A stretch of 64,000 nucleotides of DNA, taken from the NCBI GenBank assembly GCA_963717435.1, contig OY970332.1, forward strand, positions 832,001 through 896,000, read 5' to 3'. The stretch comes from an uncultured bacterium. GTDB taxonomy: Bacteria; Babelota; Babeliae; Babelales; Babelaceae. Both the position numbers and the translations under genes were made by a program. Below the pieces are notes generated by a model that was given only the letters and a program-made list of their open reading frames with translations, searched no databases and was not told where the DNA came from. Below are positions 6,758-44,468 of the stretch, in pieces (position 1 is the first letter of the stretch; every line of letters starts with the position of its first letter).

Positions 6758-6844
6758 GCGGAAGTGGTGAAATTGGCAGACACGCAGCTTTGAGGGGGCT
6801 GTGGGAGTAATCCTGTAAGAGTTCGAGTCTCTTCTTCCGCACCA
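6758..6844 (+). tRNA. tRNA-Leu(GAG)
   Basis: GCGGAAG/CTTCCGC acceptor stem, CAGCT-TTGAGGG-GGCTG anticodon arm, long variable arm, GTTCGAG, encoded CCA. Confidence 0.96.
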
Positions 6845-6874
6845 GTCATTTCTCCAGAAATGACTGGCAGGCCA
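6842..6874 (+). repeat. CCA-bounded hairpin trailer behind tRNA-Leu
   Basis: CCAGTCATTTCT-cc-AGAAATGACTGG then CAGG-CCA; same TGGCAGGCCA end as the tRNA-Pro trailer. Confidence 0.75.
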
Positions 6875-6955
6875 CCTTCTTTAATAGTTTAAATTTAATA
6901 TAATAAAAAATTGATAGCAAAGAGCGCAGTTATGATTTCATAAGTAAGGTATTTT

Positions 6956-7459
6956 ATGAAAATAATTCGATTTATATTAGCAGGCATATTGTTTCAAGGT
7001 TTTGTGCAAGCTCAGCAAATTATTTCGCCAGAAGATTTGGATCAAATCAGTTATACATTGGGCAATTTCGTTGAAGGTATAAATAAAAAAGACTATGAAA
7101 AGATGCGTCAGGCCTTTACAAAAGATGATGCCAAACTTATCTCTGCTGTTCAACAAAAAGCTATGAGCCTCACATTATATGGACTTGCACTCAAATCTGG
7201 TGAATGTTGGCAGGAAATTGAGCCTGGCAAAAAAGTTAGATTTAATTGTATTTATAAAGAAGAGAGTCCATGCACTAAGATTTCTGGCCTTTCAACATAT
7301 TTTGTGTTTGAAAAGAGTGGCGATCGTTGGTTTATTGTTGATACTGATTTTCATAAGGAAATTTTATTTTTCACATGGCCATGGATTTTATTTTGGGCGA
7401 TCCTGGTGTTGGGGATGATCTTTTTTGGGTTGTGGAGGCTAAATCGTAATAAAAAATGA
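6956..7459 (+). CDS. Exported protein with C-terminal TM anchor, possibly NTF2-like
   Basis: Signal peptide (VQA/QQ), FVFEKSGDRWFIV, C-terminal TM. Confidence 0.7.
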   Translation: MKIIRFILAGILFQGFVQAQQIISPEDLDQISYTLGNFVEGINKKDYEKMRQAFTKDDAKLISAVQQKAMSLTLYGLALKSGECWQEIEPGKKVRFNCIYKEESPCTKISGLSTYFVFEKSGDRWFIVDTDFHKEILFFTWPWILFWAILVLGMIFFGLWRLNRNKK

Positions 7460-7548
7460 GAAAATATCATGAAATATAATTAAAGTAAAAACTTTACTGT
7501 TATCTTCTAAAGTTCTAGTCGCCAGTATAATAAAATATGTCATAAAAT

Positions 7549-7580
7549 AAATATCCCCTGGAAAAATGCAGGGGATATTT
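7549..7580. terminator. Bidirectional intrinsic terminator
   Basis: AAATATCCCCTG...CAGGGGATATTT inverted repeat between convergent genes. Confidence 0.7.
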
Positions 7581-8544
7581 ATTTCTTTAGCTCTTTCTTA
7601 AATATAGCATCTAGATCTAGTGGGTGGGCTATTAATTTATAATTGGCTTCGTTATGATTCTCTATTTCGCCAAGACTTACCATTTCATTTGTGCAACTTA
7701 TATTATTTTCGATATCTTTTAGAAGCTTATCAATAATTGGGGAAGTTTTTCTTTGTTGTGCAAGATCATCATTTATTATGTAACTTTCTTCGATATAGCC
7801 CCATTTTGATATAAGATGTGCAGCAACATTTGTACTATGGGAATACCCAAGAGCAACAATTATGGTTTTTTGCTTATATTTTCTAAAAAATCTATTAATT
7901 GCATTTTTGACCTGATTATCAATCTCGTCGTTCAAGGTGCTATGTATCGCTATACTTCTATCATCAGGATTATAAAAGTAATTATTCTTATTTATGGGCA
8001 CAAATTTTTTAACTTTAAAATCACCAAATAGCATACGTCCAATTCCACTCATCGGGCTTGGACCAACACGATAACTGAAGTTTTTGTATTTTTTTTCTTC
8101 CCCAATTTTTCTTGCAATATATCCCCACCATTTAGAATGTGTTGCTCCAATTGGTAAGTTCAGTTCGGCCATTTCAACACTCCACCAATCTTCGTCTATC
8201 AAAGATATTCTATTTGTTTTTACTATATTAATTAGATCGTTCTGTTGTTTTATCAAATTGGGTAAATTATTTCGTAGAAGATCTATTTTTTTATTAATTT
8301 CATCAACTTTGTAGGCATATAATTTAAGGTGATTTGTACCTTTTTTATCTATAATATTTTCGATTTCAGCACAAATTTTACTTGTTAAATTAGCATCAGC
8401 TTCTATGGTTGCATGTAGGTCATACAGCACGTATACAACATTATTTGATCTGGTTTGACGCAATTTTTTTAACGCAAAAAAATCTGCTTTAAGAGATAAA
8501 TTGGCTAAATTTATGAGTAGTAAGAATTTTAAGTTGTTTTTCAT
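7579..8544 (-). CDS. Secreted hypothetical protein, possible TraB/Tiki/EreA-ChaN-like fold
   Basis: Signal peptide; VYVLYDLH near N-terminus and IIVALGYSH near C-terminus; fold call is speculative. Confidence 0.7.
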   Translation of the reverse strand: MKNNLKFLLLINLANLSLKADFFALKKLRQTRSNNVVYVLYDLHATIEADANLTSKICAEIENIIDKKGTNHLKLYAYKVDEINKKIDLLRNNLPNLIKQQNDLINIVKTNRISLIDEDWWSVEMAELNLPIGATHSKWWGYIARKIGEEKKYKNFSYRVGPSPMSGIGRMLFGDFKVKKFVPINKNNYFYNPDDRSIAIHSTLNDEIDNQVKNAINRFFRKYKQKTIIVALGYSHSTNVAAHLISKWGYIEESYIINDDLAQQRKTSPIIDKLLKDIENNISCTNEMVSLGEIENHNEANYKLIAHPLDLDAIFKKELKK

Positions 8545-8604
8545 ATTTCCCCTTTTGCCATTAACAAATTTTTTTTAATAGCCTACAAACTCTAATGTAT
8601 CAAA

Positions 8605-9282
8605 TCAATAAATAATTATTGAACCAATCTTTCTATTGTGTAAATCATATTTATTATTGAGAAGATTAAATAACAGCGGCCAAGGTTTATGATAAATTTC
8701 ACCAATATATTCTGCATCAAAAATTTCATTGCTCGCGAGCATAAAAGCTAATTCCATAATAAGATAAGAAGAAGCTATTCCGCATGCTTTTTCAAGATCA
8801 ATTGTTTTTTTGATTCGATCTTTCAAAATTGATTTGACTGCTTCATTAACGTCTTCATAAAATTCATTATTGGTCACATAGAGGTTGTTTAAATACTGTT
8901 TTTGTTGTTGATATGCTGGGTTGTTTTCTATATCACATTCCCAGTTAATTATCTTTATGTGTTGCGTATTTTGACTCGCGTTTAAGAGATCAATACTATA
9001 ACTACAACGATTATACAGATTTTTTCCTTTTGATAGCGCTTCTTTTTTGGCTTGCTGGGTGGTATAACCTAATGCTTCAAACGTGGAAATAGTAGGATAG
9101 TCTGGAATTACTATAATAATCCGTGCAAATAAGGGACCAGTCACTGTGAGTAATTCTACTATTTTTTCCCTGGTAAAGTAGCTATTATTAAGGCTCATGC
9201 CAATAACAACAGTCCCTTTATTTTCCAGAATGCGATAGCCAATTGTATATGATTTACCTATCAAATCTCTTTTAATTTCCAA
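8605..9282 (-). CDS. tRNA-dependent cyclodipeptide synthase, NYH subfamily
   Basis: IGMSLNNSYF (S30, N33), YLIME (Y173, E177), IYH (Y197, H198); spacing matches AlbC S37/N40 and Y178/E182/Y202/H203. Confidence 0.88.
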   Translation of the reverse strand: MEIKRDLIGKSYTIGYRILENKGTVVIGMSLNNSYFTREKIVELLTVTGPLFARIIIVIPDYPTISTFEALGYTTQQAKKEALSKGKNLYNRCSYSIDLLNASQNTQHIKIINWECDIENNPAYQQQKQYLNNLYVTNNEFYEDVNEAVKSILKDRIKKTIDLEKACGIASSYLIMELAFMLASNEIFDAEYIGEIYHKPWPLLFNLLNNKYDLHNRKIGSIIIY

Positions 9283-9594
9283 ATTACCCCCAAATTTTGG
9301 CCAAAATTGCCATAATTCCTAATCTTTTTTAGGCTTTGCACCTAGAAAATGTAATAAAAATATTCTTATAACTAATATATGTTTTCTAATTGGCATTATT
9401 TATTTTACCGATATCTTGAATATTGTAAAGACTAAAATGGCGAATATCTGAGGTATAGGAATTCCAATTCAGTATCACCTTGGCGGCAAAAAAACTTCCA
9501 AATACTACGTTTGTAGAGTAAACTAGATAAAAAATATTGACTATCCGATCAAATATTGTTTTTTGTAACAAAAGAAAGAACTATAAGAATAAAC

Positions 9595-10293
9595 ATGAAC
9601 TATTTTAAAATTTTCTCGATTCTAATTTTATTTACACTGTTTTTGAATAATGATTATTCCATGGAGATTGAGAAGTCAAAGTTGGATGAGGAATTTATAT
9701 CTGATTTGAAGCTGCCCTTAGATCAAGAAGATCCATTAAATCTTGAAAATTTGAAAAGTGATTTAAAATTAGGTTCCAACCCTAATCTAATTACTAAAGG
9801 AACATTTGGCTCGAATCTTACTATATTAGATATAGCAGTATCAGATTTAAGAAATTTGGAACTAGTAAAATTATTGTTAAAATCTGGAGCTAATCCTAAT
9901 CTTATTTCTCCCTCCAAAAAATTTACTCCTTTAGATAATGCTTTATATAAAATGCTTACATATGTAAATCAAGATATTTTTGAAGTCTCTAATCAAGATA
10001 TAGTAGCAAATATGAATAATCTGATTGATATAGCTACTGTTTTATTGGAGCATAGTGCGAACCCCAGGATTAGCCAATATAAAACTTATTCTGCTATGAT
10101 ATTTGCAGATCCAGCTAAAGTAGCCAGAAGCTTTTATGATAATGGAATGTGGGATAGCTTTGAACTTCTGGATAAAGTCGTGAACCGATTAGAAGATCTC
10201 ATGAAAGATGAGCACCTTGAGGTTCTAAAGTATTTAGAATTTAAATCTAAACTAGACAATCTGGAAAAATTAATGTTAGAAGCTACTAAATAG
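9595..10293 (+). CDS. Secreted ankyrin-repeat protein
   Basis: Signal peptide then TILDIAV..NLELVKLLLKSGANPN, TPLDNAL, LLEHSANP. Confidence 0.85.
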   Translation: MNYFKIFSILILFTLFLNNDYSMEIEKSKLDEEFISDLKLPLDQEDPLNLENLKSDLKLGSNPNLITKGTFGSNLTILDIAVSDLRNLELVKLLLKSGANPNLISPSKKFTPLDNALYKMLTYVNQDIFEVSNQDIVANMNNLIDIATVLLEHSANPRISQYKTYSAMIFADPAKVARSFYDNGMWDSFELLDKVVNRLEDLMKDEHLEVLKYLEFKSKLDNLEKLMLEATK

Positions 10294-10360
10294 AATAAAA
10301 GATTTATCACATTAAAAATCTATCTTAAAGTACAGCGCCCCTAATTTAAAAGGGATAATT

Positions 10361-21712: not shown

Positions 21713-21720
21713 AATTAAGT

Positions 21721-21797
21721 GGCGACGTAGCTCAGTTGGTTAGAGCGGCAGAATCATAATCTGTAGGTCCTGGGTTCGAATCCCCGCGTCGCCACCA
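21721..21797 (+). tRNA. tRNA-Met(CAT), elongator type (Ile2 not fully excluded)
   Basis: GGCGACG/CGTCGCC stem, ATCATAA loop, GTTCGAA, CCA. Confidence 0.93.
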
Positions 21798-21849
21798 GTC
21801 TTCGCTTATCCGGGCCTTCCGGCTCGGCAAGCTACGCCTGGCGCAGCCA
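21795..21849 (+). repeat. CCA-bounded palindromic trailer behind tRNA-Met
   Basis: CCAG-TCTTCGCTT...AAGCTACGC-CTGG-CGCAG-CCA; last 36 nt match 44403-44438 at 31/36. Confidence 0.85.
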
Positions 21850-22000
21850 GTTTTTTAAATGAAATTAACATAGAGCAAGACAGCCCGAAGAAGCCGTAGG
21901 CGCAGACGGGCACTAAATAAGATCTAGAAAATTTTATATGGCCAGGAAGTTAATTTTGTATAAAAATATCTTAATTTAATAACGAAAGTAATTCTTGTTC

Positions 22001-22594
22001 ATGTTACCCGCTAAAATTAATTTTCCAACGGCTCTAACTCTGCTTCGCCTATTACTTTCTACGACAATTCTTCCAATAATTTTAGTCTTATTTTTGCCCT
22101 ATAATATTTTGGGGATTAATTTACTTCTTGCAGCTTTTTTTGCGCTTATCAGCTTTACAGATTTCTTGGACGGATATCTTGCAAGAAAACTTAATCAAGA
22201 AACTGATTTTGGAAAAATACTGGATCCGATCGCAGATAAGTTTTTACTTTATGCAACTCTTCTTTCTCTTGTTTATATCCACAAAATATATTTTTATTTT
22301 GCAGTGATATTAATTGGTCGCGAATTTTTTATCGCAGGACTGCGTGAGGCGGGCGGGTATATGGGAATAAAAATTCCAGTTTCTTATTTTGGAAAACTAA
22401 AAACTACTTTGCAAAATATTTTTTTAATACTAGCTATAGCTAATCCATATCAAGATTTGGGATTTTCAAGTCTGTTTAATATATCCCAGTGGGCATTTAT
22501 GTGGTTGGCAATTCTGACTTCTTTAATTTCTGCGTATATTTATTATAATGGTTTCGTAGAAAATTATTCTGTGCTTAAAAAAAAGGGTGACTAA
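22001..22594 (+). CDS. pgsA: CDP-diacylglycerol--glycerol-3-phosphate 3-phosphatidyltransferase
   Basis: PTALTLLR, TDFLDGYLARK..FGKILDPIADK, GKLKT. Confidence 0.9.
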   Translation: MLPAKINFPTALTLLRLLLSTTILPIILVLFLPYNILGINLLLAAFFALISFTDFLDGYLARKLNQETDFGKILDPIADKFLLYATLLSLVYIHKIYFYFAVILIGREFFIAGLREAGGYMGIKIPVSYFGKLKTTLQNIFLILAIANPYQDLGFSSLFNISQWAFMWLAILTSLISAYIYYNGFVENYSVLKKKGD

Positions 22595-24317
22595 TTTGAA
22601 GTTTATAGAACTAGCGAAACTGTTTTCAGAAATCGAAGAAACTAGTTCTCGCAATATCATAACACAAAAATTAGCAGATTTTTTTTCAAAGTGCTCATCA
22701 ACAGAAGCACAAATAATAACCTATTTATCTCTTGGAACATTAAGACCTCCGTATATAAAAATGCAGTTTAATCTTGCTGAAAAAACTGTAAAAAAAATTG
22801 TGGCAAGAGTTCTTGAAAAATCTATAGACTGGGTTGATGAGAAGCTTAAAGAGACGGGTGATTTGGGAGAGTTATTAAGGTCTCGTGAGAACAATAAATC
22901 GTCCTGCGAATTATCTATTACTGAAGTTTATAAAAAACTCGAAGAGCTGGAACTAATTTCTGGTGAGGGCTCAGTAGAAATCAGATCAGAGAGACTTTAT
23001 GATATTTTAAATTCTGTTGATAATTTATCTGCAGTATATATTGTCAAAATTGTTCTTGCCAAGCTACGCCTAGGCTTTTCTGATATGACAATCATAGACG
23101 CACTTTCTTGGATGGTTTCAGCTTCAAAGAAGTTTAGTGGAAGAATCGAAGGCGCGTATAACGTTTGCGCTGATCTTGGCCTGATAGCCTATACTATAAA
23201 AGAAGACGGGATCGAAGGTCTAGATTCTATCAAGCCGCAATTGGGAATCCCGATAAGACCTGCCGCTGCAGAAAGACTTCCAACGCCATCAGCAATTATT
23301 GAAAAGCTTGGTGATTGCATCGCACAGCCCAAACTTGATGGTTTCAGGTTGCAGGTACATATAAAAAAAATCCCCAATAGCAACAAACATGAGGTCTGGT
23401 TTTTTTCAAGAAACTTAATAGACATGTCAGATATGTTTCCAGATCTTGTTGAAGATTTGAAAGATCTTAATGTTGAAAATGTTATCTTTGAAGGGGAAGC
23501 AATAGGCTACGATGAGCAAACAGGAAGCTTTGCACCATTTCAGGAGACTGTAAAAAGGAAAAGAAAACATGACATTGAAGAATTTGCTTCAAGCTTGCCC
23601 CTAAAATTATTTGTATTTGATATTTTATATTTAAATGGCAAATCTCTTATGAATTTGACACATAGCCAGCGAAGAGAAATAGCCGTAAATTTGTTTAAGA
23701 ATAATAAAAATCAAAAAGTTTCTGTAATCGAAGAGAAAAAAATAACTACGGCAGAGCAACTTGAAAAATATTTCCTAGAAAATATATCTGCCGGATTAGA
23801 AGGGTTGGTTGTAAAAAAACCTGACTCGATTTATCAGCCGGGCAAAAGAAATTTTAATTGGATAAAACTAAAACGTCATGAGAAGGGCCATCTAGAAGAT
23901 ACTATCGATGCAGTTGTCTTGGGCTACTATAATGGTCACGGCAAGCGCGCAACTTTCGGAATAGGTGCTTTTTTGGTTGGAATTTATGATCCCAAAAATG
24001 ACAACTTTTTGACGGTTGCAAAAATCGGCACGGGCCTTAAAGACGAAGGCTGGGTAGAACTTAAATCTAAGTGCGACAGAATAATAACTAAAAATAAGCC
24101 ACATAATGTCGATTGCCCAACAGCTCTTTATCCAGATACCTGGGTTGACCCAGAAATTGTGGTTGTAGTACGCGCTGATGAGATAACAAAGTCGCCGCTA
24201 CATTCTAGTGGACTTGCATTAAGATTTCCAAGATTTGTTTCTTACTCTATTGATAAGTCGCCAACACAGGCTACAAGCTTGCACGAACTTAAGAGACTCT
24301 TTGAGGACCAAAAATAG
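22587..24317 (+). CDS. ATP-dependent DNA ligase (DBD + adenylation + OB domains)
   Basis: KLDGFRLQVH, FEGEA, FDILY, EGLVVK, WIKLK, LRFPRF; N-terminal LRLG DNA-binding domain. Confidence 0.93.
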   Translation: MTNLKFIELAKLFSEIEETSSRNIITQKLADFFSKCSSTEAQIITYLSLGTLRPPYIKMQFNLAEKTVKKIVARVLEKSIDWVDEKLKETGDLGELLRSRENNKSSCELSITEVYKKLEELELISGEGSVEIRSERLYDILNSVDNLSAVYIVKIVLAKLRLGFSDMTIIDALSWMVSASKKFSGRIEGAYNVCADLGLIAYTIKEDGIEGLDSIKPQLGIPIRPAAAERLPTPSAIIEKLGDCIAQPKLDGFRLQVHIKKIPNSNKHEVWFFSRNLIDMSDMFPDLVEDLKDLNVENVIFEGEAIGYDEQTGSFAPFQETVKRKRKHDIEEFASSLPLKLFVFDILYLNGKSLMNLTHSQRREIAVNLFKNNKNQKVSVIEEKKITTAEQLEKYFLENISAGLEGLVVKKPDSIYQPGKRNFNWIKLKRHEKGHLEDTIDAVVLGYYNGHGKRATFGIGAFLVGIYDPKNDNFLTVAKIGTGLKDEGWVELKSKCDRIITKNKPHNVDCPTALYPDTWVDPEIVVVVRADEITKSPLHSSGLALRFPRFVSYSIDKSPTQATSLHELKRLFEDQK

Positions 24318-34406: not shown

Positions 34407-34434
34407 GTAATAAACCAATTAAATGGTCAGAACT

Positions 34435-34806: not shown

Positions 34807-34811
34807 AGTTT

Positions 34812-37800
34812 TTATTCAAAAATATCGCCCGATATTTTTATATCAAAATATTTTGGCAGTACTATTTTTTCTATAAGCTTAGAAGAAGCTAGCATATCTT
34901 CTTTGTTTTCTGATCTTACAATAACATGGGAATTTATGTCTTTTAACGTCGACTCTAATTCGACGATTAATTTGATAAAAAGTTTTATTCCAGCAATTCT
35001 GTCGCTATCTGTTGATATAGTTTCTTTTGCTCCAGAATTATCTGTACTATTTTCAGAATCTGCGTTGTCATCTAAGATTTCTTTCACGCTGTGTTTTTGT
35101 GACAATAAATTTTTGTTCGAAGAAGCAGAAGAGTCCAGTTCTTTTTCCAGCTTTTGCCATAAGTTTTTTTCTTCAATCTTCTTCAATAATTCTGAAGTTG
35201 ACATGGCAATGTTGCCCTTGTTGGCAAGAAAAGCTTCCATTTGATGATCCGTTACTAAATCTGTAATTATATTCTGATCATCTTCAACAGGCGTGTAGGT
35301 ATACGCATAAAGCATGAAAAATGTTCCAGGGTTGGACCAATCCATACAGTGTGCGATATCTTTGTGAATCCCCCATTTTCTTTGCTTCTTTTTAGATTCA
35401 ATAATATGAAACTTCTCGATAGGCTTATATTTATCTTTGTTTTCACTTAAATCTACTATTGGCAGTCGCTTTTCAAGAGCATAAAGATAACCAGATTTGT
35501 CGCGTTTAATTATTAATGGAGGCACGCCGTACGGTATTTTTTCAGGAACCAAAAACTGCCCGTTTTCAGATTTACAATAAACAAGTTGTGAAATGATCCC
35601 GTACCATTGCGCACGAATTGGTGTAACAAAATTTTGAAACTGTTCAAAGTCTTGACAGCTTTCATGCATCACGCCAACTACTGTTGTTTTTACGCCATTA
35701 GTTAAAATAAGTTCTGAGCCACGTTTGATCTGATTTTTGTAACTTGTATCTGGAATCTCTCCGTCCATGCCGGACCATATGCTCGAATAATACTCGTGAT
35801 TAATATAATTTTGAAATAAATTTACAATTTTATTATTAAGATCTAATAATTTTTTCGAATCAAATTTTAAAAGAATATTATAAACTTTATCAAGCGCATA
35901 TTGAGAATCTCTCAACTCATGTTCTTTTGACAGCTTTTCTTGTACATGTTTTAAAATATCTTCGCCTTGCGCAGCTATAACTCTTTGCACTTCTGACTTT
36001 AAATCTTTTTCAAGCGTTTTTCCTGAAATTAAATTTAAGCTTTCGCCTGCGTGTTTTTCCAATATATTATACATAGATAATCTTAAAGCGGTTTCTATAA
36101 CAAGATTTTCAGCAAGCTTGGCTCTGCAGTCGTTTAATAGTTTATAATTTTCTGCTTCTCTGTGTACCATTATTTTGTAGAAGCTATTTTCGATATCAAA
36201 TCTGTCTTTAAACAATTTTTTCGCGTACTGCAAAATAAAGTTAACACGAATATTTTCTCTTGATGTTCTTGGGTACATACTCAAGAAGTTAACAAATACC
36301 ACTCGTTCGATACCTTGGGCCTTCATCTTGTCTATCAAAATTTGCATGAAATCTTTATAACTTAATGGAAGCGACAGGCCCTTTACGAATAACATCTGTT
36401 CAGGCACAGCGTTTTTAAGACCAGTTGAATGGGTGGTTGCTAACGGTACAAGAATTTTTAAAGTTTTATTCTCTTTTTTATTAAATATATAATGGCTATT
36501 TTCAAACTCGAATGGGACCCAGTCCTGATCAAGCTTGTTTAAATTTACTACCTGTTGCGCGAAGTGATATTCGATATTACTGTCACTATTATTAGTATTA
36601 TTACTGTTATTAGAGTAAAGCTCAAGATTTTCGCGTATAACTTGATTTTTTAGATGCTCAAAATTTTCTATAAGCTTTTCACGATTTTCAGAAACAAATT
36701 TTAAAATTTTATTAATATCATGTTCTTGAAGATCTTTTTTGGTTGATACGTCAGAGTAAACAAACCCCTCAGGTTTTATCGTAAAATGACTTATTTGGGC
36801 AGGAAGATCCACCAAAAACAATTTGTCTTTTAACTTATATACTGTCGCTTCTTGACTTGACGAGTTATCGCAACGTTCATATTTTTCAAATTGATCAGAA
36901 TATTTTTGCCAATTTTGTATATTATTTAATAAAGTACTTTTTCCGACGCCATCAACAAAACTGCCGAATATATAAGCAGTGTTTTTATCTTCTATTGGCT
37001 TTATATATTTTTCAAATTCTGTAATAAATTTTTGAGCGTTAGCAGTCGCGCCAGCCTTTTGTATAGATAGCGTCTCTATAGGGTAAGTTATATCTGGTCC
37101 GACAAATATCTTTTTGATATTACATTTGCCCTTAACCAACATGCTGGCATATTCTGTAGAGAATAAAATATCTTGTGTTGCAATATTATTCCCAAATCCA
37201 CTTTTGCATGATTTTTCAAACAAGAATTTCCAGAAATCCACTATGCTGCTCAAGCAAGCAACAGGGTCCTTGGAATATATTTTTCGTTCTATTTCGTTTC
37301 TGATTTGAATTATATAATCAAAATCTTTATCTAATGCATGCTTTTGGAAAACTACGTTGTTGTCATCAAAAAAATTAATATTTTTTGCATGGACATGTTC
37401 AAATATCGCGGGGCTGTCTGGGTGCCACTTTTTTTCTAACCAGTTTGCATCTTTTAAAACAAATCCTGTTAAGAAGCCAAACATGTTTCTTGCTGATTTT
37501 TCTGAACCAGAATTATTTTTTAGTATCGCTTCATCATGAATATCTTCACGATCCCAGCTTGAAGTATACGGCGGCATTCCGTCTTCCTGGTACCCAATAA
37601 TTAATATATCATGATCAACTTTAATCTGATTTTGTTTTATAAACTCTCTAAGTTGCAAAAAACTATTAGCCGTTTTTTTTAGAGTATATGGGTGATATTC
37701 TCGAGTGTATTTACTCTCAAGATCATACTTGTCTATAAAACTATCTATAAAATTATCAGGGTTTGCTTCTGAAAATAAAAAATTTACACAGAACAAGCTT

Positions 37801-37832
37801 AGCATTAACATGCTAGATTTTTTATTAATCAT
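34812..37832 (-). CDS. Large hypothetical protein with P-loop-like motif
   Basis: About 1000 aa; signal-like MINKKSSMLMLSLFCVNFLFS; GSFVDGVGKSTLL and LVDLPA; start could extend to 38069. Confidence 0.75.
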   Translation of the reverse strand: MINKKSSMLMLSLFCVNFLFSEANPDNFIDSFIDKYDLESKYTREYHPYTLKKTANSFLQLREFIKQNQIKVDHDILIIGYQEDGMPPYTSSWDREDIHDEAILKNNSGSEKSARNMFGFLTGFVLKDANWLEKKWHPDSPAIFEHVHAKNINFFDDNNVVFQKHALDKDFDYIIQIRNEIERKIYSKDPVACLSSIVDFWKFLFEKSCKSGFGNNIATQDILFSTEYASMLVKGKCNIKKIFVGPDITYPIETLSIQKAGATANAQKFITEFEKYIKPIEDKNTAYIFGSFVDGVGKSTLLNNIQNWQKYSDQFEKYERCDNSSSQEATVYKLKDKLFLVDLPAQISHFTIKPEGFVYSDVSTKKDLQEHDINKILKFVSENREKLIENFEHLKNQVIRENLELYSNNSNNTNNSDSNIEYHFAQQVVNLNKLDQDWVPFEFENSHYIFNKKENKTLKILVPLATTHSTGLKNAVPEQMLFVKGLSLPLSYKDFMQILIDKMKAQGIERVVFVNFLSMYPRTSRENIRVNFILQYAKKLFKDRFDIENSFYKIMVHREAENYKLLNDCRAKLAENLVIETALRLSMYNILEKHAGESLNLISGKTLEKDLKSEVQRVIAAQGEDILKHVQEKLSKEHELRDSQYALDKVYNILLKFDSKKLLDLNNKIVNLFQNYINHEYYSSIWSGMDGEIPDTSYKNQIKRGSELILTNGVKTTVVGVMHESCQDFEQFQNFVTPIRAQWYGIISQLVYCKSENGQFLVPEKIPYGVPPLIIKRDKSGYLYALEKRLPIVDLSENKDKYKPIEKFHIIESKKKQRKWGIHKDIAHCMDWSNPGTFFMLYAYTYTPVEDDQNIITDLVTDHQMEAFLANKGNIAMSTSELLKKIEEKNLWQKLEKELDSSASSNKNLLSQKHSVKEILDDNADSENSTDNSGAKETISTDSDRIAGIKLFIKLIVELESTLKDINSHVIVRSENKEDMLASSKLIEKIVLPKYFDIKISGDIFE

Positions 37833-37867
37833 CCATATATTTTCCGGTACTTTGGGCAGATTTTCAT

Positions 37868-38002
37868 GATCCGCTCGTCCTGAGTGTTTTTTGAGCGTAT
37901 TGCGCGAAAAAAACGTATCGAAGGATCGGATCACGGGTTCGCTGTATCCTTCGATACATTCTACTTCGCTCTCCGAGCTTCGTAGAACACTCAGGACGAG
38001 CG
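37868..38002. repeat. Inverted pair of palindromic element A
   Basis: CGCTCGTCCTGAGTG..GTATCGAAGGAT facing ATCCTTCGATAC..CACTCAGGACGAGCG; each copy has a different inner hairpin. Confidence 0.9.
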
Positions 38003-38058
38003 AGTGTAGATCAAGCTTTGCTTTGAATTTTGAAAATATTTTTAAAATAACTGAGTTT

Positions 38059-38934
38059 CTAATCACCATAATCTGCCTGCTTATTTTGTTTTTTTAGCAA
38101 ACTTACTATTTGTTGGTTTTTCTCGTATAACTCAGCATATATTGCTTCAAATTTCGTTTTGTCATAAGTCGCATTTGACCAGGTTTTTAATTTAGCAACC
38201 TGTTTTTTAAGCTCTTTATTAAACTTCACAGCCAGCTGACAATATTTCTTATAAAGCTCTGAATTATTAATATGGGCGTAAGAGTATTTGATTGCTTCTG
38301 AAAATTGGTTCACCAAGCAGTCGCAATAAAATGCATAAAAAACAAACATTGGATGATGCTCCCCTTGGGGCACATCAAGTTGTTGTGCAATATCCAAAAT
38401 GGGTATTAACCCATTCTCTGAAGCAATTTTTTTTGTAACTTGAATAAGATCTATGTCTTTATTATAAGATTTTAGATAAATATTTTTTAAAAATATTTCA
38501 TAAACTGTGCATTGCCAAAGTGACTTTGAATAAAGCTGTGTGATATCATCACAGTCTTTTTCATTAAAGTAATCAGCTCTTGTTTGCGATTGCGCAAGCA
38601 TTAAAATTGCAAGTTCTAACCCTTTAAAAAAATCTTTTAGCTGGAGATTTAAAAGCTCCTGCATAACCCACGGTGCATTGGGTTTAAACTCATCTAACTG
38701 TTTCTTGAAGCTTTCCAGCCCCAATATCTCAGTAGTATTTGTTTCAGATATTTTTTTGCTAATTAGATTTTGTATAGATTCTGTTTCTTGTTCCCGCTCG
38801 TCCCGAGTGTTCTTCGAAGCCTTGGCGAAGAAGAATGTATCGAGGGATTGCGATGTGCTCTTAGCGAGATTAGGGCTAAGTAATATAGCAACTAAAGCAA
38901 GAACCAGTAGTTCAGATTTAAGTTTTATTGCCAT
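38059..38934 (-). CDS. Secreted hypothetical protein with in-frame element A just after the signal peptide
   Basis: AAGGGGG RBS, MAIKLK + hydrophobic stretch. Confidence 0.75.
   Translation of the reverse strand: MAIKLKSELLVLALVAILLSPNLAKSTSQSLDTFFFAKASKNTRDEREQETESIQNLISKKISETNTTEILGLESFKKQLDEFKPNAPWVMQELLNLQLKDFFKGLELAILMLAQSQTRADYFNEKDCDDITQLYSKSLWQCTVYEIFLKNIYLKSYNKDIDLIQVTKKIASENGLIPILDIAQQLDVPQGEHHPMFVFYAFYCDCLVNQFSEAIKYSYAHINNSELYKKYCQLAVKFNKELKKQVAKLKTWSNATYDKTKFEAIYAELYEKNQQIVSLLKKQNKQADYGD
38793..38848 (-). repeat. Palindromic element A, in-frame
   Basis: Shares an exact 39 bp core TCGATACATTCTTCTTCGCCAAGGCTTCGAAGAACACTC with the 60312-60380 copy. Confidence 0.92.
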
Positions 38935-38956
38935 TTTAACCGCCCCCTTTTTTATT

Positions 38957-40069
38957 TTAGAACCAACTGTTATTTTCAGCCAAATTAGCCTCAAAATCCA
39001 CAAACATCTTGCTTACGTTATTCATAGCGGCAAGTCTGTTTTTTATCGCAGCAAGATTGTGCGATGCAATAAGATCTGAAATATCTGCAAGATTGTTTTT
39101 AAAGTTCTCGGCCAAACTGTCCAAGCCAGATCTTGCTGCAGCAGGCATGTCTTTGTTCTTCACTTTGGTAGCATAAAGCATGTATGCGATAACTCTATGA
39201 CCCTCTTTTAATAATTGGGCATAAGCCATATTCAAATTCTCTCTGCTTAGCTGTGCATATAGTTCGTCACCAGATTTTTCAGTGCCAACTATCGTGCATG
39301 CATTAACCATCTCTAGCGCAGATTCAAAGTTAGTATGATGGGTAATAAAATATTCGTAACTAAGAGGCATAAAATGCTTGTAAAAGCTTCTGCTTGTCCA
39401 TGCTATTGCCGCACCTAGCGCCAACTGGAACCCTATTCCTGTTCCAATTCCCCAAATTCCATGGAAAAAGCTGCTAATATACCCGCGTTCTGGTTCTATA
39501 TGAGTCTTGTTTTGCCAGTTTATCAATAACGCATTCAATTCAGATGGCGAAAGTTGTTTTAGAAAACAGATTAGAGTTCTGAGTAAATTTATATTTTTGC
39601 TTTGTTTTGGCTTTTCACGACCAATTTCATCTAGAGAATCCAAAAGTTCGCGAATTTCACTTTTTTTCTGCTCGGCATCTACATGAACTTTTCTATCAGC
39701 TTCTATCAAATTAACTAGATCTATTAATTCGTCTTTTGCAGCTTTCCGCGGCTTGCCTATCTTCGAATATAAATCTTTGCAGGTTGAGACTACATCTTTT
39801 TGGTACAAATAATATCCAGCACCTAAAGCCACTGTCGCATACCCAAGTGTTCTAAATTTACTGTTTTTTTCTTCAAGACTAATTATTGTTTTGATCTCAT
39901 GCAAAATTTGATCGCGATTAATAATCAGAGCAGATTTTTTTTCTTGCAAAGTTTGTTCTGCTATTTTTGGTTCAGCAACTTGCGTTTGAGCAATTAAGCT
40001 GTTAGCACAAAACAGAGCCAATAATATTTTGCAACTTAAGTTTTTATTTATAAGTTTTAAGCTTGTCAT
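38957..40069 (-). CDS. Hypothetical exported/membrane protein
   Basis: Signal peptide plus two internal Gly-rich hydrophobic segments. Confidence 0.75.
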   Translation of the reverse strand: MTSLKLINKNLSCKILLALFCANSLIAQTQVAEPKIAEQTLQEKKSALIINRDQILHEIKTIISLEEKNSKFRTLGYATVALGAGYYLYQKDVVSTCKDLYSKIGKPRKAAKDELIDLVNLIEADRKVHVDAEQKKSEIRELLDSLDEIGREKPKQSKNINLLRTLICFLKQLSPSELNALLINWQNKTHIEPERGYISSFFHGIWGIGTGIGFQLALGAAIAWTSRSFYKHFMPLSYEYFITHHTNFESALEMVNACTIVGTEKSGDELYAQLSRENLNMAYAQLLKEGHRVIAYMLYATKVKNKDMPAAARSGLDSLAENFKNNLADISDLIASHNLAAIKNRLAAMNNVSKMFVDFEANLAENNSWF

Positions 40070-40085
40070 CTCAGACTCCAAATTT

Positions 40086-41060
40086 TTAATTTAACCCAGC
40101 TAAGCTAGAAAGATCCATGTCACCTAATGACATTCCTGATGACTTTGAAGATCCTGATGAGCTACTTGCAGAAGGTTCCATAAATTTATTTTCTTGCTTA
40201 GATCCAAGATCAGAACCATAATTTATCAACTGCGCTATATACTTTAAATCTTGGCACACAATTGACAACCATGTTTTAAGTTCGCCATGCTTTTCTTGCA
40301 TCTCTTTTAGAGATTTTGTATCGGCTATTATTTCTCTCATGTGAACTAAATCTGATATTGTGTAGCCAATTTGTATAGCTATTGATTCTTGATCACATCC
40401 ACTAAAAGAATTACTAAACTTTAGGGCCATTCTTCTTATGATTCCTGACTTATCAGCTCTTGCTGCTTCTGGGCTATACCAGATTAAAGATCTCTTGAAA
40501 AATCTGATTGTATAATCGATTTCAGCCAATATTCTTAATTTAACAGGGATCCAAGAATTGCTTGAACCAGTATTGGTATCAATCTCTGCACGCTTTTCTT
40601 TTGAAAAATTACCCAAGGAAACTTGAGTATAGGGCGTAATTTGCTTTGTTAATCTGTTATTAATAATAATTAGTATATCCCAATCAAGCGGCTTCATTTG
40701 GGTCAAGAATCTGTGATACAAATGTATGAATGAGGATGTTAGGGCATCCCAACCTATAGGAAAAACGCGGAACATTTTTTCAGCCGTAGCCCTTATCGCC
40801 CCAGAAAGGGCATCATGTACGCCTTTATCAAAAGCTAGAGAGATTTTTGCGCGCCAATTTTTTAGCTTTTGCAGCGCTTCTAGGTCACTTCCACCACCAA
40901 TTAGCATTCTTCGAAGCATAAGCTCCTCGTCGACTTTTGATGTTCTTGCGTCATCGTTCTCTGTAGCCGCATCCTTCTTCATTCCCCAAATTGTTGCAAA
41001 AGAAGCTTGAATCAACAGAACCATAACTAGTTTTGTTGCAAATTTGTTTGTTTTTTCCAT
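40086..41060 (-). CDS. Secreted hypothetical protein
   Basis: Signal peptide, Ser-rich tail. Confidence 0.75.
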   Translation of the reverse strand: MEKTNKFATKLVMVLLIQASFATIWGMKKDAATENDDARTSKVDEELMLRRMLIGGGSDLEALQKLKNWRAKISLAFDKGVHDALSGAIRATAEKMFRVFPIGWDALTSSFIHLYHRFLTQMKPLDWDILIIINNRLTKQITPYTQVSLGNFSKEKRAEIDTNTGSSNSWIPVKLRILAEIDYTIRFFKRSLIWYSPEAARADKSGIIRRMALKFSNSFSGCDQESIAIQIGYTISDLVHMREIIADTKSLKEMQEKHGELKTWLSIVCQDLKYIAQLINYGSDLGSKQENKFMEPSASSSSGSSKSSGMSLGDMDLSSLAGLN

Positions 41061-41240
41061 TTTTAACCGTCCCATATTTTATATAGTTTTTATTTCAAAA
41101 CTGCTTTTATGCCGAAAAAATAACTTATATATAATTTTAATTAAAATAACGAGATATTACAAATGGTGGAGGTTATAGGGAGCTTATTTACAGGTTTAAC
41201 CTGTATTTTGGTTTTTTATGGGGGGGGTGGCGATAATAAT

Positions 41241-41262
41241 CGGGCCCCGTGATTGGGGCCCG
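41241..41262. terminator. Hairpin/terminator downstream of uvrA
   Basis: CGGGCCCC-gtgatt-GGGGCCCG. Confidence 0.6.
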
Positions 41263-41281
41263 AATTGGTATTTTTTGCTAT

Positions 41282-43873
41282 TTAATCAGCTTTAAGCACT
41301 TTTTTAAGATATTGACCCGTGTAAGACTTAGGGTTGGCCGCAACCTGGGCCGGGGTCCCTTGGGCAACAATCTGACCGCCTTCGTCGCCACCTTCTGGCC
41401 CCATATCGATAATATAATCCATGGTTTTAAGCACATCGATATTATGCTCAATTACGATAATTGAATTGCCTTTATCCACCAGTTTTGTAGTACATCCAGA
41501 AGCTTTTCTATATCACTTGAATGAAGACCCTGTTGTTGGCTCATCCAAGATATATAGGGTATTTTGTGCCTCGTTTTGCAAGCTCATTAACAAGCTTAAT
41601 ACGTTGGGCTTCGCCCCCTGATAGAGTAGTAGATGGCTGGCCAAGCTTAATATAATCAAGCCCAACATCGCACAAAAGCTTAAGTTTTTTATGTAAAGCA
41701 GGATGTGCACTGAAAAACTTCGAGGCTTCACCCGCTGTCATATCAAGAATTTGAGAATATATTTTTATCTTTATAAGTAATTTCTAATGTTTGCGTATTG
41801 TAACGCTGTCCTTTACATACGATGCAGATCATAGTTACATCCGCTAAAAATGCATAGAGACAGTAACTATCCCATCCCCGAGCAATTCGAGCAGCGACCT
41901 TCAGCAACATTAAAGCTAAATCGGCCAACATAATAGCCACGAATATTACTTTCAGGCAAGCTTGCAAAAAGTCTCGTATTTCATCAAAGATACCAAGATA
42001 AGTTGCCGGAGTTGATCGTGATGTTCTTCCTATAGGAGCTTGATCGATAACAACCAAATTTTCAATGCTTGCAAATCCTTCAATTTTCATCTTTCCTTCA
42101 AAAATAGAGGTCATCCATTTGGTAACTTGTGTAACCGCTTTTCAAAAGCATGATCACATGCGCTGGAACTAATTCTTGCATAATTAAATGTACTTTTGCC
42201 AGATCCTGAAACTCCCGAAATCCCGCAAAATAAACCTAAGAGGAAATTTGATGTAATGTTTTTTAAGTTATGAGTGAGCATCACTTAATGTAATGAACTC
42301 TTTGGGCTGCGTAAATTAGCAGTGGAACAATAGAACGTTTACCACTTAAATATGCTCCAGTTAACGAATTTGCATTTTTAGCTATCTCTTGCCGGTGTCC
42401 CGAATGCAACGACATTACCACCAAATACGCCTGCACGTGGACCCATATCGATAATATAGTCAGAACAAGCATCGTATCAGTATCATGTTCAACAACCAAA
42501 ACGGTATTACCCAGATCCCTTAATTTATAAAATGTTTTAATAAGTCTATCGTTGTCGCGTTGGTGTAACCCAATACTAGGTTCGTCTAATATATATAAAA
42601 CACCACGAAGAGCATGACCCGATCTGTGTTGCTAACCTTATTCGTTGACCTTCACCACCAGAAATGGATGCATGATCTAGTCAGTGACAAGATATCCAAG
42701 CCCTACATCATATAAAAAATACAATCGGATATTAATCTCTTGAAATTAATCTTTCGAGATAAAACATGCTTATTTTTATCAAGCTTTAAATCTTTTAAAA
42801 ATTTAAATAAATCTTTAATCGAAAGCTGGCCGTAGTCATAAATGTTTTTACTATTAATTTTGACTGATAATGCAGCTTTATTAAGTCTTTTGCCATCGCA
42901 ATCCTTGCAGATAAAAATAGACTCTTGTGAATCTTCAAGTTTTTCAAGTTCATAGCTCTGTGGCGCCGGAAAGACTTAGATGTAAAATAGTAAACAACGC
43001 CAACCCATGACATATTTCGCATGCTCCGATAGGAGAGTTAAAAGAAAATAATCTTGGCTCAATTTCAGCAAAAGGGCTAGCGCACTCTTAAGCAGATTCG
43101 TTTAGAAGCATACAAGTATTCAGATCTCGCCAACAATAACCTTGCATAACCCTTGAGTAAAGAAAAAGACTGCTTTCTACTGAATCCTGTAAACGTGATG
43201 TTTCGGTGCTTATCGTAACTTGACAACATCTAGCAATAAATCAATAGAGTGACTTATGTTTTCTTAAGCTTAAGTGCTTTAATTTCTTCTAATTTTCTAA
43301 AGCTATACTTTTGACCATCAATTACAAATTTATAATAACCAGACTAAAAAGCTTTTCAAGTTCATTGGCAAACTCACCCTTTTTATAATCGCTATAGGTG
43401 CTGCTATTGTAATATAATTACCCATAAAGTTATTTACAAGTAAGCTTGCTATTTTATCAGGAGATTGAGACTAATAGCTATAGCACAATCAGGACAACAA
43501 AGCTCACCAATACGTGCAAAAAGCACTCTTAAATAATCATAAATTTCGGTAATAGTCCCTACTGTAGATCTTGGATTAGCTCCAACCGTTTTTTGATCAA
43601 TAGCAATAGAGGGCAAAGCCTTCAATACTGGTCAAAATCTGGCTTTTTAGGCGACCCTAAAAATTGACGCGCATAAGATGAAAGAGATTCGATATATCTT
43701 CGCTTTCCTTCAGTGTATAAGATATCAAGCGCTAAGTGAACTTTTACCCGAACCTGATAGGCCCTGTAATAACCATAATGCATCTTTTGGGATATCAATA
43801 TTAATATTTTTAAGATTATGCTCCCGCGCCCCAATAACCTTAATTAATTGTTTTTATTATTTTTAGTATCCAT
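41282..43873 (-). pseudogene. uvrA: Excinuclease ABC subunit A, multiply frameshifted (pseudogene or local sequence error)
   Basis: Collinear motifs in shifting frames: [104 protein letters not shown]. Confidence 0.9.
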
Positions 43874-44068
43874 ATGGGATCTCGCGTCATTATTTAACTA
43901 TAATAAAAAACTATAATTATACTAATAAATATAAAAAAGCTTTTACAAATCTAAATAAATTTTATAATTCAGTGAGATTTAATCGCATTAATTATAAATA
44001 ATTACTAATGCAAAAATACACTAAAATTTTGATTTTTGTTTTAAAACACGTATACTACTTGATTACGT

Positions 44069-44145
44069 GGTGGATATAGCTCAGCTGGTAGAGCATCAGA
44101 TTGTGGCTCTGAGGGTCGTGGGTTCGAATCCCACTATTCACCCCA
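44069..44145 (+). tRNA. tRNA-His(GTG)
   Basis: G-1, GTGGATA/TATTCAC stem, TTGTGGC loop, C discriminator, CCA. Confidence 0.96.
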
Positions 44146-44325
44146 AAGTTTAGCTTCTTTGAAAAGCGCAACTAAATTTCCCGCTTTTGGCGCTGTGCCA
44201 TGGCGTGATATTAGAAAAAAGTTGCAATAATGCTCAAAAAGCTTAAAATTATCTCAGCTTTAAAATTCTAGTTTAAAGCTTCTGTCTTTTGAAATAAAAG
44301 CATTTGAAATTCAAAAAATATTAGT

Positions 44326-44401
44326 CGGGGCGTGGCGCAATTGGTAGCGCACTCGCTTTGGGAGCGAGGGGTTGCACGTTCGAGTCGTGTCGCCCCGACC
44401 A
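44326..44401 (+). tRNA. tRNA-Pro(TGG)
   Basis: CGGGGCG/CGCCCCG stem, TTTGGGA loop, CCA. Confidence 0.96.
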
Positions 44402-44468
44402 CGCCTTCAGGCTTGGCAGGCTACGCCCGGCGCGGCCATACTACGCTAAAGCTTCGTATGGCAGGCCA
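44399..44468 (+). repeat. Two tandem CCA-bounded trailer units behind tRNA-Pro
   Basis: CCA-CGCCTTCAGGCTTGGCAGGCTACGCCCGGCGCGG-CCA-TACTACGCTAAAGCTTCGTATGGCAGG-CCA. Confidence 0.85.

Follow-up and report, generated by a model that had tools for sequence, protein, structure and literature searches.

The window, a 64,000-nucleotide stretch of a 1.2-Mb genome from the order Babeliales, carries tRNA genes for Leu, Met, His, and Pro, each with a trailer that begins at the tRNA CCA and runs to a second CCA (Table 1). The host is an intracellular bacterium of the phylum Dependentiae. The initial annotation had marked these four sites as hairpin units, and all four were borne out by their coordinates. 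In the Leu-GAG unit, a stem of 8 + 3 bp without mismatch joins the CCA (6842–6844) to a TGG (6865–6867), which is followed by CAGG and the second CCA (6872–6874). The predicted RNA fold of this unit, in which the CCA pairs with UGG, has an energy of −15.3 kcal/mol (z −4.6), and by fold energy it is the only one among the window trailers to stand out from shuffled sequences. The tRNA-Arg(CCT) that shares the Leu spacer bears a hairpin different from that of Leu. The Pro units are arranged in tandem with one CCA in common, which closes unit 1 and opens unit 2. The match of 31 of 36 nt reported between the Met and Pro trailers was reproduced (86.1% over 36 nt), and the His unit is indeed weaker, its minimum-energy fold leaving the CCA unpaired with TGG. 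The Met unit is near-identical to units behind other tRNAs in the related genomes G009 and G038. In a 121-nt fold, its left arm pairs with the distal segment downstream of the T6 tract, and the layout of this segment recurs at other loci between a unit and a gene encoding a GIY-YIG nuclease. Rfam searches detected nothing but tRNA in the window at gathering scores and nothing else in the interval 6600–7000 at E-values up to 1.

Table 1. Coordinates of the tRNA genes, hairpin units, and adjoining features in the window.
Feature	Position	Strand	Basis
tRNA-Leu(GAG), CCA encoded	6758–6844	+	ARAGORN; Rfam tRNA
Leu short unit, AT-rich stem: CCA/8-nt arm/4-nt loop/8-nt arm/TGG/CAGG/CCA	6842–6874	+	scan, fold
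Spacer, pyrimidine-rich and then AT-rich	6875–6935	+	near-verbatim repeat behind tRNA-Arg(CCT) elsewhere in the genome
tRNA-Met(CAT), CCA encoded	21721–21797	+	ARAGORN
Met long unit, GC-rich imperfect stem, CTWCG in both arms, tail TGGCGCAGCCA	21795–21849	+	
Met tail mini-hairpin (TGG side and second-CCA side), then T6	21838–21856	+	terminator scan, fold
Imperfect distal complement of the Met unit left arm, then a second GC-rich hairpin	21874–21910	+	
tRNA-His(GTG)	44070–44145	+	ARAGORN
His trailer, weak and divergent, CCA...TGG-N7-CCA; no clear member	44143–44200	+	sequence, fold
tRNA-Pro(TGG)	44326–44401	+	ARAGORN
Pro unit 1, GC-rich, tail CGGCGCGGCCA	44399–44438	+	sequence, fold
Pro unit 2, small CTWCG hairpin, tail TGGCAGGCCA	44436–44468	+	sequence, strict scan, fold

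The observation is real and far larger in extent than first noted. Inspection by eye identified a unit of the form CCA-hairpin-TGG-C(A/G)(G/N)G-CCA directly 3′ of 18 of the 35 tRNA genes in the genome, ten with AT-rich and eight with GC-rich stems. That such units are enriched behind tRNA genes relative to other CCA sites was confirmed by a genome-wide strict scan, which demanded a CCA, six or more of the 8 pairs beside CCA/TGG, and a tail of the form TGGC-N2-3-GCCA: 12 of its 18 matches begin at an annotated tRNA CCA, against a background of 35 tRNA ends among 31,723 CCA sites. The other six comprise the second Pro unit, two orphans, the Gly array read in reverse, and two chance-like matches. 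When the genome was simulated ten times with a second-order Markov model, each run yielded one to five strict matches, versus the 18 real ones. The strict scan overlooks the Tyr, Met, Pro unit 1, Gln, Arg-TCG, and Leu-TAA units, and a general palindrome scan was dominated by AT-rich noise and recovered just the perfect-stem units. The units take the first position behind tRNA genes that close a transcription unit; they are absent at tRNAs with a close, co-transcribed downstream gene and at a tRNA with a canonical terminator.

Across the order Babeliales, the unit pattern matches 121 of 201 genomes, and the reversed pattern, used as a control on the same 201, matches none. In a sample of the phylum, units were found in 89 of 151 genomes, and outgroup genomes gave none (0 of 5 and 0 of 151; 0 of 156 in total). 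Most units lie at orthologous tRNAs across genera, a placement that points to vertical descent. The presence/absence polymorphism for which the initial annotation proposed to look exists within one genus, where units are present, absent, or decayed at orthologous tRNAs: those of G173 are intact at the same tRNAs where those of G001 are missing or have decayed, in the latter case by point mutation. At tRNA-Glu, homology between the two genomes stops exactly at the CCA.

For structure statistics, 64 distinct units were compared. Stem positions 1, 3, 7, and 8 are Watson-Crick paired in 60–63 of the 64, and the triplets beside CCA/TGG form eight different complementary pairs; the stems show compensatory changes between genomes and are alike inside one genome. 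Positions 2, 4, and 6 hold fixed pyrimidine-pyrimidine mismatches. Both arms of the GC-rich type carry CTWCG, which the AT-rich type lacks. The hairpin is found in either orientation, and the orientation of the tail is constant. The second CCA, for which a lack of conservation had been considered, is conserved, the tail being TGGCAGGCCA in 43 of the 64 units; it is followed by G in 38 and then by a T/C-rich tract.

Several candidate roles of the tail were rejected. The tail TGGCAGGCCAG is perfectly complementary to the tRNA-Trp 3′ end, as a primer-binding site might be, yet the tRNA-Trp 3′ end is unchanged in four genomes with AAG tails, GAG tails, or a mix of CAC and CAT tails; because of this lack of covariation, we take the complementarity as coincidence. 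Pairing of the tail with 5′ leaders was discarded, given that the leaders are AT-rich, promoter-like, and devoid of a tail complement. By eye, a sigma-54 promoter lacks the −12 GC, and the distal complement does not conform to an RNase P external guide, pairing from C75 rather than after A76 and being followed by YCC rather than NCCA.

The same architecture also occurs with CCA replaced by a different flank word, nested in other repeats and with that word duplicated; tandem copies with a run of C instead of CCA also exist. Its build can be written as X / imperfect hairpin / X′ / C(A/G)(G/N)G / X, where X is the end of the upstream flank and X′ is its complement. The proposal that a mobile unit targets tRNA 3′ ends and duplicates CCA survives in part. 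It agrees with the nested copies that duplicate the flank word, the tandem arrays, the varying state at orthologous tRNAs, and the physical tie of units to a mobile GIY-YIG cassette; it does not agree with the orthologous location of most units across genera or with the finding that no transposase for the units was detected in the window's genome. CCA as the sole target word is inadequate because a 3-nt match cannot yield a near-exclusive location at tRNAs. The trailers do have the CTWCG core in common with an intragenic repeat, as previously noted; tRNA ends would be a hypothetical reservoir of it.

A gene encoding an 80-aa GIY-YIG nuclease lies 50–175 nt behind such units among the 35 copies compared, and each of the three copies in the window's genome is placed 50–190 nt behind a unit. 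The presence of a GIY-YIG gene behind tRNA-end units is new here. A strict unit was found at most 260 nt upstream of 18 of 35 GIY-YIG copies and a relaxed unit upstream of 30 of the 35, compared with 11 and 163, respectively, of 2,000 random control windows. The cassette, about 0.43 kb long, consists of the tRNA 3′ part from the T-loop, the unit, a spacer, the 80-aa GIY-YIG gene, and a 3′ hairpin; it brings a substitute for the tRNA 3′ end, starting at the T-loop, and the copy thereby displaced remains downstream. Direct repeats of 68–142 nt (tRNA 3′ part plus unit; 94–100% identity), which belong to recent cassette copies, flank 6 of the 35 GIY-YIG copies, two of these six being hand-picked loci. 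In G180, the gene is located behind a tRNA ending in CCCGGCACCA, where G173 and G001 have none. An alignment revealed 30 intact ORFs of 79–95 aa with the conserved GIY-YIG residues; PF01541 was matched at 54.5 bits, and the ORFs correspond to the catalytic domain alone, with no separate DNA-binding domain. One intact copy in the window's genome occupies genome positions 413544–413789. The cassette encodes no integrase, only the small nuclease. Serine recombinase genes abut tRNA-Glu and tRNA-Asp and represent true integrase islands.

GIY-YIG homologs are encoded in 132 of the 201 order genomes, and a hand tally of co-occurrence, uncorrected for shared ancestry, gave 98 genomes with both units and gene, 34 with GIY-YIG only, 23 with units only, and 46 with neither. 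Solo units greatly outnumber cassettes in the window's genome (about 21 vs 3). G111 and G157 have units but encode just a different small GIY-YIG protein, away from tRNAs. One GIY-YIG subfamily is linked to Glu tRNAs and AT-rich stems, and another to Gln tRNAs and CTWCG stems. The association between gene and unit could merely reflect landing of the cassette beside pre-existing trailers.

The reading we prefer, with confidence that is evenly balanced, is that of a REP-like unit family, copied at the DNA level and native to tRNA ends, that appears tied to a minimal tRNA-targeting GIY-YIG cassette. Under this reading, the units, as compared by sequence, belong to one family of short DNA palindromes that occurs throughout the sampled Dependentiae (Babeliales) genomes. 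They would mostly pass vertically at tRNA ends, be homogenized by DNA-level copying, through break-induced gene conversion or insertion, and be moved now and then. The GIY-YIG nuclease would be the most likely driver, with the unit serving as its cis site or as the homology used. X′ could pair with either X, which would lengthen the main stem or form a mini-hairpin with the 4–5-nt spacer as its loop, an arrangement reminiscent of how guide and cleavage site are matched in single-strand transposons. Once transcribed, the unit would fold onto the CCA, ahead of the pyrimidine-rich tract, and probably act as a terminator or 3′ barrier insulating downstream genes. Removal of the trailer would then fall to an endonuclease, or to PNPase with help, because the genome encodes RNase E/G, PNPase, and RNase PH, with neither RNase Z nor RNase II/R detected. 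This scheme holds no step for the origin of X′ and the second X. Also speaking against it are the units of genomes that lack the tRNA-linked gene, the 34 genomes with the gene but no strict unit, the preponderance of solo units, and the restriction of long flanking repeats to 6 of the 35 GIY-YIG copies.

A bolder and more tentative proposal, possible rather than probable, is that an undescribed minimal mobile element of about 0.4 kb, made up of the unit plus the 80-aa GIY-YIG gene, would home into tRNA genes at the T-loop, bringing a replacement tRNA 3′ end and a guide hairpin. The 3′ side of the hairpin would carry a short word complementary to the target, which could pair with either the target copy or the terminal copy of the element, and through this pairing a nuclease devoid of a DNA-binding domain would be offered a recognition site composed of structure plus guide. 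Solo units would be non-autonomous offspring of the element, co-opted as tRNA terminators.

The alternative that fares best, although we consider it rather unlikely, is that the unit, with its CCA-sequestering hairpin, conserved tail, and second CCA, is a functional pre-tRNA trailer, akin to the second option of the initial annotation. It would be an ancient lineage-specific signal for processing and termination whose copies are kept uniform by ordinary gene conversion among tRNA flanks, with the GIY-YIG cassettes as opportunists landing on it and the nested copies as accidents. Across the sampled phylum, tRNA-end units always start at position +1 after the CCA; they recur at orthologous tRNAs across genera, are missing where the next gene is co-transcribed, and combine a conserved tail with a pyrimidine-rich tract. 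Read on the sense strand, the mismatches are pyrimidine-pyrimidine, with 79 T.C/C.T among positions 2, 4, and 6 versus 2 G.A at position 2, and genomes devoid of the cassette still have units: G101 carries 11, plus a weak remnant of a tRNA-linked GIY-YIG gene, and G122 carries five and no such gene. The lack of an RNase Z match above the cut-off in all 201 order genomes fits a dedicated trailer as well, but for the same reason RNase Z cannot explain which genomes have units. Against this alternative, 80 of the 201 genomes lack a strict unit, and the close relative G001 is losing its units by decay at all tRNAs and has gained no RNase Z. G-U pairs, expected under constraint on RNA only, occupy just 9 of 512 stem cells, and the same build occurs at non-tRNA sites with non-CCA flanks. 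The hairpin, moreover, occurs in both orientations with the tail fixed, and a stable hairpin at the CCA would impede PNPase and RNase PH, the sole 3′ exonucleases found (RNase II/R was not found in the window's genome).

If the units were ordinary intrinsic terminators of tRNA transcripts and the second CCA had no role, this would account for the location at transcription-unit ends and for the at least five T residues within 8 nt after the second CCA in 28 of the 64 units. The mini-hairpin of the Met tail with its T6 is also accepted by the terminator scan, the sole such site among the four window trailers, but the Leu and Pro units fail it. In the units, the T-rich tract starts 7–8 nt past the main stem rather than against it, a tail identical in 43 of 64 units across families is needless for a terminator, and a real canonical terminator behind another tRNA-Met is unlike the units in appearance. 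We regard this explanation as quite improbable.

Very unlikely, too, is movement in trans of REP/BIME-like or IS200/IS605-derived miniatures by a Y1 (HUH) transposase, such as RAYT, with CCA as the target word and the final CCA as the right-end cleavage site. The imperfect hairpins with fixed mismatches, the tandem arrays, the flank word repeated at the right end, and the complementary word beside the hairpin would all suit such an origin, and Y1_Tnp genes are present in 76 of the 201 order genomes. However, Y1_Tnp (PF01797) was not detected in the window's genome (G000) or in the unit-rich genomes G173, G009, and G180, which contain 16, 14, and 12 units, respectively, and by a hand tally units are present in 69 of 125 genomes without the gene and in 52 of 76 with it. 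A Y1 transposase was rejected as the driver on these grounds, and the 3-nt target is again too short for the observed tRNA specificity.

Retro-copied concatemers of RNAs that received CCA post-transcriptionally (tRNA-CCA plus hairpin-RNA-CCA), produced by a template-switching reverse transcriptase, would fit the CCA at the end of all tRNA-end units, the single CCA shared by tandem units, and the CCA-adding-type enzyme encoded in the genome, but appear scarcely credible given that non-tRNA units close with their own flank word instead of CCA.

The preferred reading, a REP-like family copied at the DNA level, invites comparison with known systems. REP/BIME elements with RAYT, in Enterobacteria and Pseudomonas, are short imperfect palindromes, extragenic at transcription-unit 3′ ends, GC-rich relative to the genome, organized in tandem arrays and genome-specific families, and thought to stabilize or terminate transcripts. 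The Dependentiae units are likewise multicopy, short imperfect palindromes outside genes, with tandem arrays and genome-specific families. They differ in being fixed to the tRNA CCA, in having a conserved 3′ tail in which the flank word recurs, in being nested in repeats, and in their linked gene, an 80-aa GIY-YIG nuclease, with no RAYT in the window's genome. REPs are defined by a conserved GTAG/CTAC word at the hairpin foot; of the units, the GC-rich type displays CTWCG on both arms and the AT-rich type does not. IS200/IS605 elements have hairpin ends, insert beside a short target word without a classical target duplication, and carry at the right end their own copy of the cleavage word, the cleavage site being read by guide pairing. 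In the units, a hairpin, a flank word, its complement, and its repeat are present and may play corresponding parts, but a single hairpin with a single guide-like word would have to serve both sides, and no Y1 transposase was detected in the window's genome. In Escherichia coli leuX, a terminator hairpin lies directly behind the tRNA gene and is removed by PNPase or RNase P. Here, too, a stable hairpin starts almost at the CCA and would have to go for tRNA maturation, but leuX-type trailers are not known to have a conserved tail or a second CCA, to pair CCA with TGG, or to evolve in concert as multiple copies, as the Dependentiae units do.

The cassette resembles homing cassettes in that it is present or absent at a conserved site and takes flanking sequence with it (G180 versus G173 and G001), and tRNA-targeting integrative elements, which duplicate the tRNA 3′ end as att, in that it brings a replacement tRNA 3′ end, albeit without an integrase. 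Another counterpart is SegB of phage T4, described as a free-standing GIY-YIG homing endonuclease in the phage tRNA gene cluster, whose gene and flanking DNA are inherited preferentially after a cut at the cognate site (PMC2330249). The Dependentiae gene likewise sits among tRNA genes. Compared with SegB as described there, the Dependentiae proteins are the catalytic domain of about 80 aa alone, with putative cleavage activity, and their genes are chromosomal, multicopy, and flanked by the duplicated tRNA 3′ part and the hairpin unit. A full-text literature search returned no account of the units and, for GIY-YIG genes near tRNAs, phage and organelle cases alone; the main text of two Dependentiae genome papers contains no passage on palindromes or GIY-YIG.

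The units provide a marker for the sampled Dependentiae genomes, and as repeats they could confound assembly and annotation near tRNA genes. They also bear on tRNA 3′ maturation, in a phylum apparently without RNase Z and RNase II/R, yet with a stable hairpin abutting the CCA of half its tRNAs. To our knowledge, GIY-YIG nucleases of about 80 aa are the smallest of their kind. If the link between unit and nuclease is true, the nuclease may locate its site via a DNA hairpin rather than a binding domain, a prospect that would matter to both mobile-element biology and nuclease engineering, and Dependentiae would carry a compact selfish system that lives on the cell's most conserved genes and leaves them intact.

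Extraction of the 110 nt 3' of every tRNA gene, a check of the kind proposed in the initial annotation, located a unit behind 18 of the 35 tRNAs in the genome containing the window (a single contig of 1,198,203 bp, 34.6% G+C). Judged by SerRS, the nearest relatives of this genome are metagenome bins carrying the labels Babeliales, Babeliaceae, or Dependentiae. Each unit is a short hairpin that begins at the tRNA CCA and is followed by TGG, a short spacer, and a second CCA. AT-rich stems were found behind 10 tRNAs (Arg-TCT, Lys-TTT, Ser-TGA, Arg-ACG, Ser-GCT, Tyr, Leu-GAG, Ser-GGA, Leu-TAA, and Val-TAC), and GC-rich, imperfect stems behind 8 (Gly-GCC, Met, Pro, Cys, Phe, Gln, Arg-CCT, and Arg-TCG). 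Among these 35 genes, no unit is present where another tRNA or an open reading frame (ORF) begins within a few bases, at the tRNAs of the rRNA operon, or at a tRNA-Met with a canonical terminator. A strict scan of the whole genome yielded 18 matches, compared with 1–5 in simulated genomes; 12 of the 18 start at an annotated tRNA CCA, and tRNA ends account for only 35 of the 31,723 CCA sites. The remaining six matches comprise the second Pro unit, two orphans, the Gly array read in reverse, and two chance-like hits. The tmRNA also has a hairpin starting at its CCA, followed by a GC-rich palindromic element.

Coordinates of the units and associated features (W, window; C1, contig of the same genome; C1 position = W position + 832000)
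Feature	Position	Remarks
Leu(GAG) unit	W 6842-6874	CCA 6842-6844, 8-nt arm, 4-nt loop, complementary arm, TGG, CAGG, CCA ending at 6874
Met unit	W 21795-21849	55 nt, GC-rich version
Distal complement	W 21874-21883	complements, almost perfectly, CA and the left arm of the unit; such segments lie some 60-100 nt behind certain units
DNA ligase	W 22587-24317 (+)	ATP-dependent, dnl1 type (TIGR00574, 389 bits), two genes downstream of tRNA-Met
Dispersed repeat	W 32282, 33058, 37964, 38830, 50110, 60338	approximate starts; GC-rich, nested, ~70 nt
Pro units (two)	W 44399-44438, 44436-44468	one CCA common to both
His trailer		weak look-alike only
Distal complement, other regions	C1:1022955, C1:1123791	
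Orphan unit	C1:263729-263784	no tRNA called upstream; RNase P RNA is 0.8 kb upstream
Orphan unit	C1:351646-351680	no tRNA called upstream; preceding sequence ends like a tRNA acceptor end
tmRNA	C1:348796-349173	Rfam 149 bits; hairpin lacks the TGG/second-CCA tail
Large serine recombinase	C1:407163-408086 (-)	outside the window; Recombinase, zinc ribbon
Large serine recombinase	C1:1174526-1175983 (-)	outside the window; Resolvase, Recombinase, zinc ribbon
tRNA-Leu(CAA)	C1:704650-704734	CCA not encoded (ARAGORN ends)
tRNA-Lys(CTT)	C1:1137890-1137963	CCA not encoded (ARAGORN ends)
CCA-adding-type enzyme	C1:951165	

The anatomy of the unit was derived from 64 distinct examples. The triplets after CCA and before TGG form eight different complementary pairings, stem positions 1, 3, 7, and 8 are Watson-Crick paired in 60–63 of the 64 units, and positions 2, 4, and 6 are fixed pyrimidine-pyrimidine mismatches (T.C in the GTC...GCC type; in the GC-rich type, a CTWCG word on each arm). 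G-U pairs are scarce (9 of 512 stem cells). The tail reads TGGCAGGCCA in 43 units, and the second CCA is followed by G in 38, then by a T/C-rich and an A-rich stretch. Both orientations of the hairpin occur, with the tail always on the 3' side. In several regions, the unit is followed by a complement of its left arm, then by YCC and another GC-rich hairpin. This complement changes in step with the left arm, with at least six forms seen across genomes, and may represent a terminal inverted repeat, a long-range RNA helix, or a relic. In the window, a dnl1-type ATP-dependent DNA ligase, unusual in a small bacterial genome, is encoded downstream of tRNA-Met.

An order-wide pattern (T-loop through CCA, 18–48 nt, TGGC-NN-GCCA) matched 121 of the 201 genomes of the order, and its reversed control matched none of them. 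In a sample of the phylum, 89 of 151 genomes matched, all from the same order, and there were no matches in two sets of genomes from other phyla (0/5 and 0/151). Stems are nearly uniform inside one genome and differ between genomes. In three relatives, representing two families, tRNAs are followed by the same AT-rich hairpin. We found neither an Rfam family for the unit nor a description of it in full-text literature searches. Text searches within Dependentiae genome papers located no passage on palindromes or GIY-YIG; the hits for repeats deal with protein repeats, and the hits for tRNA with counts and enzymes.

Several observations concern the behavior of the units as DNA. Within one genus, G173 carries intact units where the strict pattern detects none in G001 (94% complete), whose orthologous tRNAs show decayed remnants at several sites and no trace at others; homology between the two genomes stops exactly at the CCA of tRNA-Glu. 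One G173 unit, behind the tRNA that ends in CCCGGCACCA, carries a tandem duplication of the final 7 nt of its tail (CAGGCCA). At its core, the dispersed ~70-nt repeat has the same CTWCG mini-hairpin, bearing out the suggestion that the trailers share a core with a nested element inside genes; this repeat, probably that same element, has many copies genome-wide, some apparently within long ORFs. Complete units are nested in it, with the flank word (CGA-type) duplicated, and others lie in tandem behind a run of C, with GGG-CAGG-CCC replacing TGG-CAGG-CCA. The TGG can pair with either the tRNA CCA or the second CCA, and such pairing with either copy of the flank would recall the guide logic of single-strand transposons. 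Speaking against a simple account, no Y1 transposase was detected in this genome or in the three genomes of its family that carry the most units.

An 82-aa ORF located 50 nt behind an orphan unit encodes a GIY-YIG catalytic domain and nothing more. Two further copies, the first of them truncated, follow the tRNA-Arg(TCT) unit and the tRNA-Gln units. Homologs are present in 132 of the 201 genomes, mostly in several copies; in public records they are named only "GIY-YIG nuclease family protein", from Babeliales or Chromulinivorax bins. By a hand tally, gene and strict unit occur together in 98 genomes, the gene alone in 34, units alone in 23, and neither in 46. Of the 35 copies in the best 30 loci, 18 have a strict unit in the 260 nt upstream of them, and 30 have one when the tail is relaxed, compared with 11 and 163 of 2,000 random windows, respectively. 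Upstream of the adjacent unit is either a complete tRNA (Glu, Gln, Asp, Arg, Asn, Met, or Leu) or a 3' fragment of one. Six of 35 copies (four from the best 30 loci and two from G180 loci picked by hand) are flanked by direct repeats of 68–142 nt, 94–100% identical, in which the part of the tRNA running from T-loop to CCA is joined to the unit and some spacer. After the stop codon and before the second repeat, the displaced T-arm is split by a GC-rich hairpin. The gene is absent at the equivalent tRNA in two genomes of the same genus, and catalytic-type residues are kept in 30 intact ORFs (79–95 aa). This link between small GIY-YIG genes and the units is new.

The orphan unit with its GIY-YIG gene is explained by a 6-kb insert. 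On one side of it lies tRNA-Glu, abutted by a truncated gene for a large serine recombinase; on the other side are a Glu-like tRNA 3' fragment, the unit, and the GIY-YIG gene. Other genomes have tRNA-Glu, unit, and gene in uninterrupted succession. The 3' ends of tRNA-Glu and of tRNA-Asp each overlap a large serine recombinase gene; the trailers at the two sites are homologous to each other, and these loci are probably integrative islands.

The main rival explanation is that the unit may be primarily an RNA signal, beside which the GIY-YIG cassette merely lands. Units occur without tRNA-linked GIY-YIG genes in G101 (11 units) and G122 (5 units), as this explanation would allow; G111 and G157 have only different small GIY-YIG genes that do not adjoin tRNAs. 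ARAGORN calls four tRNA genes in the window (Leu, Met, Pro, and His), whose trailers match their initial description, including the 31/36 nt identity of Met and Pro upon realignment. It also speaks against a simple account that, by folding energy alone, only the Leu unit is an outlier and that only the Met tail passed the terminator scan. At its energy minimum, the Met unit pairs TGG with the second CCA, giving a 5-bp mini-hairpin ahead of T6. No RNase Z was found in any of the 201 genomes searched. The genome under study has RNase P RNA, RNase E/G, PNPase, RNase PH, and a CCA-adding-type enzyme, the latter consistent with the two tRNAs that, unlike the other 33, do not encode CCA; no RNB-family enzyme was found in it. 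The RNA-signal and DNA-level explanations may both be true.

In our reading, the units form a REP-like family that is native to tRNA ends. They would be inherited vertically, yet homogenized and now and then moved at the DNA level, and would be linked to a minimal GIY-YIG cassette that has tRNA genes as its insertion sites. Once transcribed, they probably act as a trailer hairpin and terminator.
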